From: a virus
Lineage: Duplodnaviria > Heunggongvirae > Uroviricota > Caudoviricetes
Direction: 5' to 3' (one strand)
DNA: 62,349 nt
Virus record (IMG/VR): IMGVR_UViG_2718218228_000003
Made by a program: the position numbers. Shown here one piece after another: positions 6,001-9,000 of the stretch. The stretch's first letter is position 1; each line of letters starts with the position of its first letter.

Positions 6001-9000
6001 CAGGCCACCCTGCAATGGCATATTGCATGGTGTGCTCCTTATTTATACATAACGAAAAACGCCTCGAGTGAAGCGTTATTGGTATGCGGTAACGCCGCGC
6101 TCAGGCGGCTTTGATAGTCATATCATCTGAATCAAATATTCCTGATGTATCGATATCGGTAATTCTTATTCCTTCGCTACCATCCATTGGAGGCCATCCT
6201 TCCTGACCATTTCCATCATTCCAGTCGAACTCACACACAACACCATATGCATTTAAGTCGCTTGAAATTGCTATAAGCAGAGCATGTTGCGCCAGCATGA
6301 TTAATACAGCATTTAATAAAGAGCCGTGTTTATTGAGTCGGTATTCAGAGTCTGACCAGAAATTATTAATCTGGTGAAGTTTTTCCTCTGTCATTACGTC
6401 ATGGTCGATTTCAATTTCTATTGATGCTTTCCAGTCGTAATCAATGATGTATTTTTTGATGTTTGACATCTGTTCATATCCTCACAGATAAAAAATCGCC
6501 CTCACATTGGAGGGCAAAGAAGATTTCCAATAATCAGAACAAGTCGGCTCCTGTTTAGTTACGAGCGACATTGCTCCGTGTATTCACTCGTTGGAATGAA
6601 TACACAGTGCTGTGTTTATTCTGTTGTTTATGCCAAAAATAAAGGCCACCATCAGGCAGCCTTGTTGTAAATGTTGCAGGTATCAAGTAAGTAATTAGAT
6701 GGAGCGCCATAAATTATGAATTCATCGTTTGTCGGGTCCATCTCCATCTCTTGTCCTATTGCCATTCTTGCGTCAGTGTCGTCAGCGGCGAAGCATAAAA
6801 CAGCCCACGCACCCATTGTTTTAAAAAGAACTGCAATTGGCTGTGGTTTTACTGAATTTGCGTTAGCGCGAAAATCACAAATCGCACTTTCATGAAATTC
6901 CATATATCACCTCAAATAAGTGGTTTGCTGCCTAATTTCATTTTCTGGCGACCAACACAAGTCATCTTGCTGTCAGTTGTTTGGATTTACGGTAGCCTGC
7001 CGCGTAAAGAGCTACATTTGGAAGACAAGTTGAGCCTTCATATTTTCTGGTCAACGTTGTCAGTGTTATTACTTCTGCTCTCATTGCTGGTTTGCGTTTG
7101 CATTGTAAGACCACTCGTGATGGGGTTGGCCTGTGTAGTTTGTCGGAGCTAATCGCCTCCTGACTTTGCAGGTTTGCGCGACGAGCTCTACGGCGAGAAG
7201 CTGCGGTGCCTTTAAATTCTGTTTTTCTGGACATAGATTCCTCCCGAATAAACTTTGGCGATGCAATCTCGAAGCTCCTCCTGAGACGGTTGCTTCGGCA
7301 TTGCATCCCACAGCTTATGTGGTTGGGTGATCTGGCTTTTCAGCCACGTAGTCGAGAGTCGACGTTGTTTAAAGAGCCTGCCAGTCTGTTCCATTTGGCT
7401 TCCAGCGTCCTGCTGATGGTTAAATAGTACGATATGTACTTCACTTGGTCAATACAATTTGTTCTAAAACGGGGCGTTTTTTTACAACGCTTTGTATTTA
7501 ATAGTATTGTTTTTTAGCGTGGGTGTATTGCCTCGGCGATGTAAGGAGAGATCAGAATTGCGTTGTTTAGTGAGTTGTATCTATTTATTTTCCAATAAAT
7601 ACAATTGGTTATGTGTTTTTTTGGGCGAGAGGAAAAGAAAACCCGGCATGGAGGCCGGGTTGATGATTAGCGGTGTGGCCTTGAGCGATAATGCTCACAC
7701 ACATGTTCAAGATTTCCATGCCTTATCCGTTCATAGGCATTCACATGAACTTCTCGATCGAATTGGTCATTCAAATTGTATGTAGACATCTGTGTTTTCT
7801 CATATTGGCGGCAGCCCTACAACCGCTTGAAAAAATGTACCAGACGCGCTAAGGTTACATCGCAAATATTGTGTACCTTAACAAGGGCTCCTTTTGGAGG
7901 CTCTGGTTAAACAGCATCAATGTCGGACTGGGGAGTTGGACATTGTGCTGAATGCTTTTGCATTATTGAGGCCGAACGTAAACCTTCAGAATTGAAGAGA
8001 TGCGTTCGGCTTCTTCGTTTGTGATATCGTTAGGAATGCCTTTAATCGTTACTGTAACCCCTGATTCAGGTCGAAGAACTACTGGAAGATCATAGGTATG
8101 AAGTGCATTAGCCTTGCCTTCGACTTTTGTTGGTTCGCCAGTCAAATCTTTTTCCTCACTGGATTCTTTGTCAATCGGAGTGTATGGGATTTCTTCACCA
8201 GACTGGAAAGCTACAAACTTTTTGATTGCACTTTCCATGCGGCTTTTATATGCAGTAATGCTGCTGTCGCTAGGCTTCGGCTCAGTTGCGTTGATGTATC
8301 GCTCGGCAAGCTCATTCACATCAAGCTGAGTAACATCACCCATTTCCTCTTCTTGGACTACCGTTAAGAGGCGAGCGGATGAGTTTTTTAAATTTCGAGC
8401 GGTGGCCTCCTTCATTATGTTCAGCGACATAAGCTCTTCAAGGAAGTCCTTGAATGCCTGCACGCTAACGTTTGACTTTGCCATTTGCTCTCTCTCTAAG
8501 TTATTGACTCAGATCGAGTTTATCCAGGAATTGATTTGCATGCAAGACTCAAGTCTTGAGAATTTCCGTTCAAGATCCACTCTCAATAAAAAAGGCCGCA
8601 CCTCTGCGACCTTTCATCTCCTAAATCTCTTTTCTCTTACCTAAAGAAACAGCAGGCTGGGTCAGCCCTAACAACTTCAAGTGCATCGGTCAGAGAAAGC
8701 TCCGTGCTATACAGGTGTTATTTCATATCTTTTTGCATCCAATAAATTTTCCATCTGTCCAGAGAGCGGATGCACTTGATTCTTGTTGATGGCAGGACGT
8801 TTTTTCACCTGCCTCACCCTGCCATACAGGACGCTGCTCACCGATATCTATCGTCCGGTCATTGATGTTATAGACAATATCCAGATCATTACGGATATAC
8901 TCAGATGGCCTTATGCTTTCAATGAATAGATGAACTTCTTTTTGACCGCTTGATACTCATGGCCATTAAACTCCATCTATCCTCTTTACCCAAACGTCTC

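Follow-up and report, generated by a model that had tools for sequence, protein, structure and literature searches.

Directly downstream of the cI repressor gene of a Stx2a prophage, a small open reading frame (ORF) ends after only 21 codons next to a frame that stays open well beyond it. The question raised by this locus is whether the two frames are joined by a programmed -1 ribosomal frameshift, switched by a contingency tract or left over from a gene broken by a homopolymer indel, which were the three options of the original prediction. The whole stretch of DNA analyzed, hereafter referred to as the window, comprises 62,349 nt and represents a prophage of the VT2-Sakai/WGPS6 type, the wider region matching best to Stx2a_WGPS6. 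The small ORF and its immediate surroundings are composed of the following features:

8986-9681, minus strand: cI repressor gene of the LexA/S24 family (ORF list; CI or LexA family protein in identical public records)
8986-8988, minus strand: stop codon TAA of cI
8980-8985, minus strand: weakened Shine-Dalgarno (SD) sequence AGAGGA (by alignment; AGGAGGA, within GGAGGA, in three intact relatives)
8974-8976, minus strand: ATG of the small ORF, 9 nt downstream of the cI stop
8911-8976, minus strand: 21-codon stump ORF MEFNGHEYQAVKKKFIYSLKA with its stop, the first 13 codons in the ancestral frame and the last 8 out of frame
8911-8913, minus strand: stop codon TAA of the 21-codon ORF
8939-8943, minus strand: A5 run inside the switch point GTC-AAA-AAG-AAG
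8956-8726, minus strand: open -1 frame of 77 codons (73 if counted from the A run)
8723-8725, minus strand: stop codon TGA of the -1 frame

On the minus strand of the window, all literal statements of the original prediction on the small ORF check out: the ATG at 8976, preceded by AGAGGA as ribosome-binding site, opens an ORF ending after 21 codons. The -1 frame, defined as the frame read after the ribosome slips back by one base and equal to the addition of one A, had been described as open for about 70 codons with no start of its own. It is indeed open and devoid of ATG, GTG, and TTG, but only about 47 codons of it are ancestral coding sequence. The 73-codon continuation is a composite in which ancestral codons 12-58 (8944-8804) are the only ones lying in that frame. 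Its last ~25 codons are an out-of-frame stretch open by chance, which is unremarkable for 25 codons, and this tail is non-ancestral because a second 1-nt deletion shifts the ancestral frame once more.

The ancestral frame became apparent from related phages. A tblastn search with the hypothetical fused product located the corresponding locus in 933W-type and Salmonella P22-like phages, where the annotation shows a single gene. Of these lambdoid and P22-like phages, 933W, SH2026Stx1, and Salmonella ST160 have an intact gene of 342 nt, encoding a 113-aa “DUF3024 domain-containing protein,” directly after cI/c2 and in the same orientation. The protein of 933W is NP_049484.1 (ST933Wp24), with orthologues in SH2026Stx1, Stx2-86, Min27, and the Salmonella phages ST160 and SE1 (orf24). 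In a tblastn comparison of the 933W protein with the unrepaired window, the combined E value was 2.8e-42, with the homology being spread over three frames:

From 8976, minus strand, frame -1: 933W residues 1-13, within the stump ORF
8944-8804, minus strand, frame -3: 933W residues 12-58, the frame followed in the original prediction
8801-8643, minus strand, frame -2: 933W residues 60-112, with a stop codon inside the segment
8637-8976, minus strand: whole DUF3024 (PF11225/PADLOC PDC-S43) pseudogene between the ATG and the stop position of the ancestral gene (TAA at 8637-8639), as delimited by DNA alignment, tblastn, and Pfam

The remnant measures 340 nt, two single-base deletions having shortened the 342 nt of the ancestral gene. 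Once these two bases were restored and the internal stop was read as W, the translation matched Pfam DUF3024 with 89.3 bits (E = 2.5e-25) over positions 4-111 of 112, thereby passing the curated threshold of 24.9 over the whole domain. The intact 933W orthologue reached 106.5 bits for PF11225, matched PADLOC PDC-S43 at full length with E = 4.4e-41 and is assigned to phrog_3467. The window copy shares position and orientation after cI with the 933W gene, as well as the length after restoration of the two bases. Identity between them is 81.8% on the DNA level and ~81% on the protein level after repair (91/113 residues to the intact protein P0001). Furthermore, the window and the intact relatives have a conserved block in common, reaching from the last cI codons to a hairpin after the gene. 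Downstream, the neighbors differ: in 933W a RuvC-like gene and stk follow, in the window a T-tract terminator and an unrelated gene of 173 aa.

The window was aligned with the intact genes of 933W, ST160, and SH2026Stx1 and then with two further contigs, which allowed the definition of three inactivating lesions:

8939-8943, minus strand: lesion 1, a 1-nt deletion leaving A5 (A7 in 933W, A6 in SH2026Stx1 and in contig L006, AAAAAG in ST160)
8800-8805, minus strand: lesion 2, a 1-nt deletion with loss of a C, GGTGAAACAAAC in the relatives being GGTGAAAAAAC in the window (alignment and tblastn)
8718-8720, minus strand: lesion 3, TAA in place of the invariant Trp87 (TGG in 18 of 18 intact relatives)

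The frameshift at the A5 run, originally proposed as the cause of the split, is therefore a real lesion but only one among several, next to the second frameshift, the nonsense codon and the decay of invariant residues. Lesion 2 moves the ancestral frame into the third frame, and the exchange of TGG for TAA requires two substitutions. Since the homology runs through three frames, the protein cannot be recovered by any one frameshift. The 18 intact relatives have 36 invariant columns, and the window copy departs from them in 6 (A2E, Q41R, Y69C, R82Q, W87*, and G113R), whereas each of these relatives differed at 0-2 invariant columns when left out in turn. The downstream frame had been expected to display coding-like conservation; its homology to a real gene is clear and not due to chance, but the frame is not coherent to its end.

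The substitution pattern points to a coding past. After restoring the two bases, the Nei-Gojobori dN/dS against 933W was 0.09 overall and 0.07, 0.15, and 0.06 in the three consecutive segments. The low ratio in each of them indicates that all three evolved as coding sequence in the ancestral frame under purifying selection, and the value of the third segment is incompatible with the long reading in the frame originally followed. As the pairwise ratio is still low, inactivation is recent relative to the divergence from 933W.

Intact members of the family are encoded consistently as one ORF. A search of 5.8 billion proteins yielded 19 full- or near-full-length relatives of 101-113 aa, being 58-82% identical to the repaired window protein. 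An intact version of the window allele was not found in this collection, the closest intact protein being the one with 82% identity. A scan of 185,579 species genomes detected 263 DUF3024 loci in very diverse bacteria, with flanking ORFs that differ in size and strand among the distant homologues. A single ORF spans the whole match in 77 of the 80 distant loci kept from these 263 and, with ~113 aa, in 18 of 18 close relatives. The AlphaFold model of an intact relative is a confident one (pLDDT 85) and consists of an antiparallel sheet of five strands with one helix before and another after it; a solved structure related to DUF3024 was not found by sequence search. Unlike the intact orthologues, the window copy combines two frameshifts, a nonsense codon and a weaker SD sequence and cannot make the protein. 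It belongs to the family by its Pfam score, yet its homology is distributed over three frames with an internal TAA instead of one ORF of ~113 codons, and its otherwise invariant residues are partly replaced. Judged by its sequence, the window copy is a pseudogene derived from the DUF3024 family and not a functional member of it.

How widely this allele is distributed was addressed on the level of phages, bacterial genomes, and contigs. Across 8600-9000 (401 nt), 44 phage records share at least 99% of the sequence with the window, and identity is 100% for the 40 that were listed. Among these phage matches are VT2-Sakai, a Stx1-converting phage, Stx2 II, YYZ-2008, 1717, 2851, and the PA series. 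Of 5426 complete E. coli genomes, 234, for the most part O157:H7, contain the same region with an identity of at least 99%, and among the E. coli matches listed every full-length one is 100.0% identical, from the top to the bottom of the ranking. A pattern search allowing 2-9 bases between the flanks of the A run recovered AAAAA in 19 of 19 contigs (17 from IMG/VR and two metagenomic), and no length heterogeneity was detected among these assemblies, including the listed phage and E. coli matches. The Sakai-type 5' end of the remnant reads MEFNGHEYQAVKKEV.... The comparison of A-run lengths, proposed originally as a check, thus gave a clear picture: in intact relatives with other alleles, the run is A6, A7, or AAAAAG and lies within a single ORF, and in this allele every copy whose run was read showed A5. 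An 81-aa database ORF (P0022) from a single Logan contig was judged a read error, as other homopolymers were changed in it, too.

A small number of deviating loci was recovered:

L006 (ENA): cI end of the 933W type, then a gene whose 5' part is SH2026-like and has A6 and which continues as window sequence from about 8905-8913 on
L091 (IMG/VR): 933W-type cI joined to the whole window-type pseudogene
L007 (Logan): an additional T 24 nt after the A5 run, restoring the frame only as far as lesion 2 (ORF P0021)
ECP19-798 (E. coli genome) and L104 (IMG/VR): remnant or its hairpin interrupted by IS629-type insertions

The window-type part of L006 includes lesion 2, the TAA, the hairpin, and the downstream gene, and its uninterrupted ORF of 84 codons corresponds to P0020. 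Taken together, these variants show the conserved block from about 9011 to 8590 to be a mosaic junction. This succession of cI end, DUF3024 gene, and hairpin is a recombination junction between immunity types. The IS629-type insertions in some strains indicate that disruption of the remnant is tolerated. Two alleles reach the ORF of 84 codons by different routes, L006 by recombination and L007 by the compensating T; these are the sole hints that this ORF might matter.

Considering this ORF as a gene product in its own right, a programmed -1 ribosomal frameshift at C-AAA-AAG would give 84 residues, namely the first 59 of DUF3024 and a novel tail of 25. No start codon occurs in the -1 frame, which continues for 73 open codons beyond the A run, and the A-AAG within C-AAA-AAG, a shift-prone motif for E. 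coli tRNA-Lys, makes low-level -1 slippage physically plausible. The unbroken presence of the same 84-aa ORF in P0020 and P0021 could in addition be read as selection for it. However, the zero frame GTC-AAA-AAG results in the heptamer C-AAA-AAG, which does not follow X-XXY-YYZ and in which only the A-site tRNA re-pairs fully. The 79 nt downstream of the A run fold with -10 kcal/mol compared with a shuffle mean of -12 (z = +0.67), and 142 of 200 shuffles fold at least as well. No SD-like motif is visible in the sequence 10-14 nt upstream of C-AAA-AAG, and apart from a chance match of 18 bits to a snoRNA, Rfam had no match in 8450-9050, whether at the gathering threshold or at E ≤ 1. A small RNA in this region was rejected as well, with no Rfam family found between these positions. 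The arrangement is not conserved either, close and distant relatives having the single ORF described above, and the substitution pattern of the last segment fits the ancestral frame. The trans-frame product would follow the conserved frame only up to residue 58-59 and, according to the structural model, would be devoid of about half of the predicted five-stranded sheet and of the C-terminal helix.

The -1 frameshift site of dnaX combines A-AAA-AAG with an upstream SD sequence and a hairpin. In common with dnaX and with orfA/orfB of the IS3 family, the window locus has an AAA-AAG lysine pair at the transition from a short ORF to a -1 frame that remains open. Unlike both, its heptamer starts with C, and it is devoid of a stimulatory structure, of conservation among homologues, and of a conserved trans-frame protein. 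A genuine -1 site is present elsewhere in the window, in the IS3-family IS629/IS1203 copy at 10118-11331, where an A6 run is followed by an ALIL pseudoknot (121 bits). We therefore regard programmed frameshifting after cI as very improbable. Recombination in L006 and a single unreplicated contig in the case of L007 adequately explain the 84-codon ORFs. There is only a very slight chance that the ORF, with the N-terminal helix and first strands of DUF3024 and its new tail of 25 residues, would be made at low level from the cI transcript by -1 slippage and have acquired a function of its own. If this were true, the product could, for example, act against a co-resident or superinfecting phage of the 933W type by interfering with the intact DUF3024 protein of that phage.

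The remaining readings were weighed against the same data. A phase-variable locus, whose A run would often change its length and thereby switch the gene on and off, is in line with the position of lesion 1 in a homopolymer and with the A6 or A7 of related alleles. The run has only 5 nt, though, and is A5 in every copy examined, i.e., in all contigs as well as in the listed phage and E. coli matches with their complete identity over 401 nt. Moreover, an ORF with A6 would run into lesion 2 all the same and stop at 84 codons, as seen in the natural allele of L006 (P0020), and the TAA would remain; this makes phase variation extremely improbable. Homopolymer miscalls are common, which would speak for an error of sequencing or assembly in a single record. 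Such an error is refuted by identical sequences from many independent assemblies and different technologies (VT2-Sakai, the Stx1 phage, Stx2 II, PA phages, and more than 200 complete genomes) together with two further lesions outside the run, and its probability is next to nil. The 21-codon ORF itself might be functional, either as a micropeptide or by its translation affecting stability or termination of the cI mRNA. It retains the ATG, the SD sequence, and the spacing of 9 nt to the cI stop, and it is invariant in hundreds of records. This invariance is explained by very recent common ancestry, though, with flanking non-coding DNA being equally identical; the frameshift accounts for its last 8 codons, its SD sequence is weaker than in the intact relatives, and natural IS insertions disrupt the remnant region. 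We thus give very little credence to a functional stump. Of the three options offered originally, the comparison of sequences upheld the homopolymer-indel pseudogene and refuted the contingency site as well as the programmed -1 frameshift.

Consequently, the feature is very probably a non-functional, multi-lesion remnant of a 113-codon DUF3024 gene, fixed in this lineage. The homology, the lesions and the fixation of these in all copies available are seen directly. In this pseudogene reading, several independent events inactivated the gene in the VT2-Sakai/WGPS6-type prophage. Replication slippage took one A from an A6 or A7 run and left A5 at 8939-8943. Further inactivating events are the single-base deletion at 8800-8805, the conversion of the Trp87 codon into TAA, and the loss of one G from the ribosome-binding site. 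Six otherwise invariant residues are replaced, and the stump of 21 residues is all that can now be translated from the ATG. This 21-aa peptide is probably still made, given that its ATG remains close to the cI stop and is preceded by a usable SD sequence, but it presumably has no function. The pseudogene reading predicts ribosome footprints ending at the TAA at 8911-8913, with no peptides of the type QKEVHLFIESIR...KKI. If frameshifting occurred, trans-frame peptides would span ...AVKKEVHLF....

The role left to the remnant depends on where the cI transcript ends. One further feature is relevant to this point:

8584-8615, minus strand: hairpin AAAGGUCGCAG-AGGU-GCGGCCUUU followed by UUUAUU, likely intrinsic terminator of the cI transcript (fold and alignments)

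The hairpin has a folding energy of -16.4 kcal/mol (z = -3.3). It is kept in 933W, but with no T tract there. In the 933W record, tM as the putative terminator of the pM transcript is annotated only after stk, and the DUF3024 gene lies between cI and tM. For the window phage, hairpin and T tract suggest that the cI transcript likely ends at 8584-8615. With such an end, the remnant would be its 3' untranslated region, and most likely it now acts only as this untranslated tail.

Lambda rexAB and 933W stk are accessory genes co-transcribed with the repressor in lysogens. The ancestral DUF3024 gene resembles them in occupying a slot downstream of cI in the same orientation and in being a defence candidate according to PADLOC. 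Unlike rexAB and stk, the window copy is dead, and a defence role of DUF3024 has candidate status only. The ancestral gene can be regarded as a candidate defence gene expressed with the repressor. Its reading as a prophage-encoded defence or exclusion gene derives from the PADLOC candidate label PDC-S43 only. Our literature search retrieved no paper mentioning DUF3024, no experimental paper on anti-phage activity of DUF3024 or PDC-S43, and nothing relevant on exclusion by 933W stk. A single mention of PDC-S43 was found, namely its prediction in a strain of O157:H7 that has PD-T4-6 as well.

In public records, the stretch is either left blank or carries a 44-aa “hypothetical protein” at 8707-8841. 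None of the public records examined annotates it as a pseudogene. The mechanism as such is not new. It should be annotated as a DUF3024 pseudogene, replacing the blank or the spurious 44-aa call, although the practical value of this correction is small. With respect to the biology of these phages, Sakai-type Stx phages have lost a candidate accessory or defence gene expressed in lysogens, which 933W-type phages keep next to stk. This loss could bear on comparisons of superinfection exclusion between Stx phage lineages.

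Sequence alignments showed a conserved block at approximately 8590-9011, extending from the final ~10 codons of cI through the DUF3024 gene to the hairpin located 3' of it, to be common to different immunity types. Two contigs carry joins within this region: in the IMG/VR contig L091, a 933W-type cI is fused to the complete pseudogene of the window type, and in the ENA contig L006 the crossover lies within the DUF3024 gene itself, near 8905-8913. Judged from this conservation across immunity types together with both joins, the block serves as a recombination junction within the lambdoid mosaic.

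A diverged allele of the window sequence was found in L007 (Logan ERR4783406, positions 40-294), differing by five point differences and by an inserted T located 24 nt 3' of the A5 run, by which the frame is restored up to the second lesion. Known from a single contig, this variant may be either genuine or an artefact of assembly. Furthermore, E. coli ECP19-798 (L008) and an IMG/VR contig (L104) carry independent IS629/IS1203 insertions, one located in the pseudogene (about window position 8887) and the other in the hairpin (about 8608), both being consistent with a dispensable remnant region. The following features of the window were considered in addition:

7963-8484, minus strand: 173-aa ORF located 3' of the putative terminator, phrog_2602 (unknown function)
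8707-8841, minus strand: 44-aa "hypothetical protein" with a GTG start, annotated for identical phages and genomes in GenBank/RefSeq
10118-11331 (flanks 9972-11527), minus strand: IS629/IS1203 element (IS3 family) with orfA/orfB and an ALIL pseudoknot
11528-11971: 5'-truncated HNH ORF
5983-6041, 13377-13575, 17762-18002 and 19413-19624: further Rfam matches

Because it lies inside the DUF3024 pseudogene and is nowhere in the ancestral frame, the 44-aa ORF is most probably a false gene prediction. The 173-aa ORF had no match in Pfam or PADLOC. In SH2026Stx1, a relative of it lies 3' of the intact DUF3024 gene, whereas in 933W a RuvC-like gene and stk occupy this slot. Rfam matches elsewhere in the window include c4-a1b1, isrK and C4 antisense RNA, representing an antirepressor-type immunity region, as well as STnc100, the lambda cIII thermoregulator and three tRNAs.

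The IS629/IS1203 element, its ALIL pseudoknot scoring 121 bits in Rfam, has cro immediately to its left. In Stx2a_WGPS6, the best match to the wider region, a stretch of ~2.8 kb with cII, a small ORF, O and a DnaB-like helicase gene separates cro from a 203-aa HNH endonuclease; in contrast, the window lacks all genes from cII to the helicase and retains only 147 aa of the HNH ORF. The missing genes and this 5' truncation suggest an IS-associated deletion to the right of cro. If so, the window prophage would be unable to replicate.
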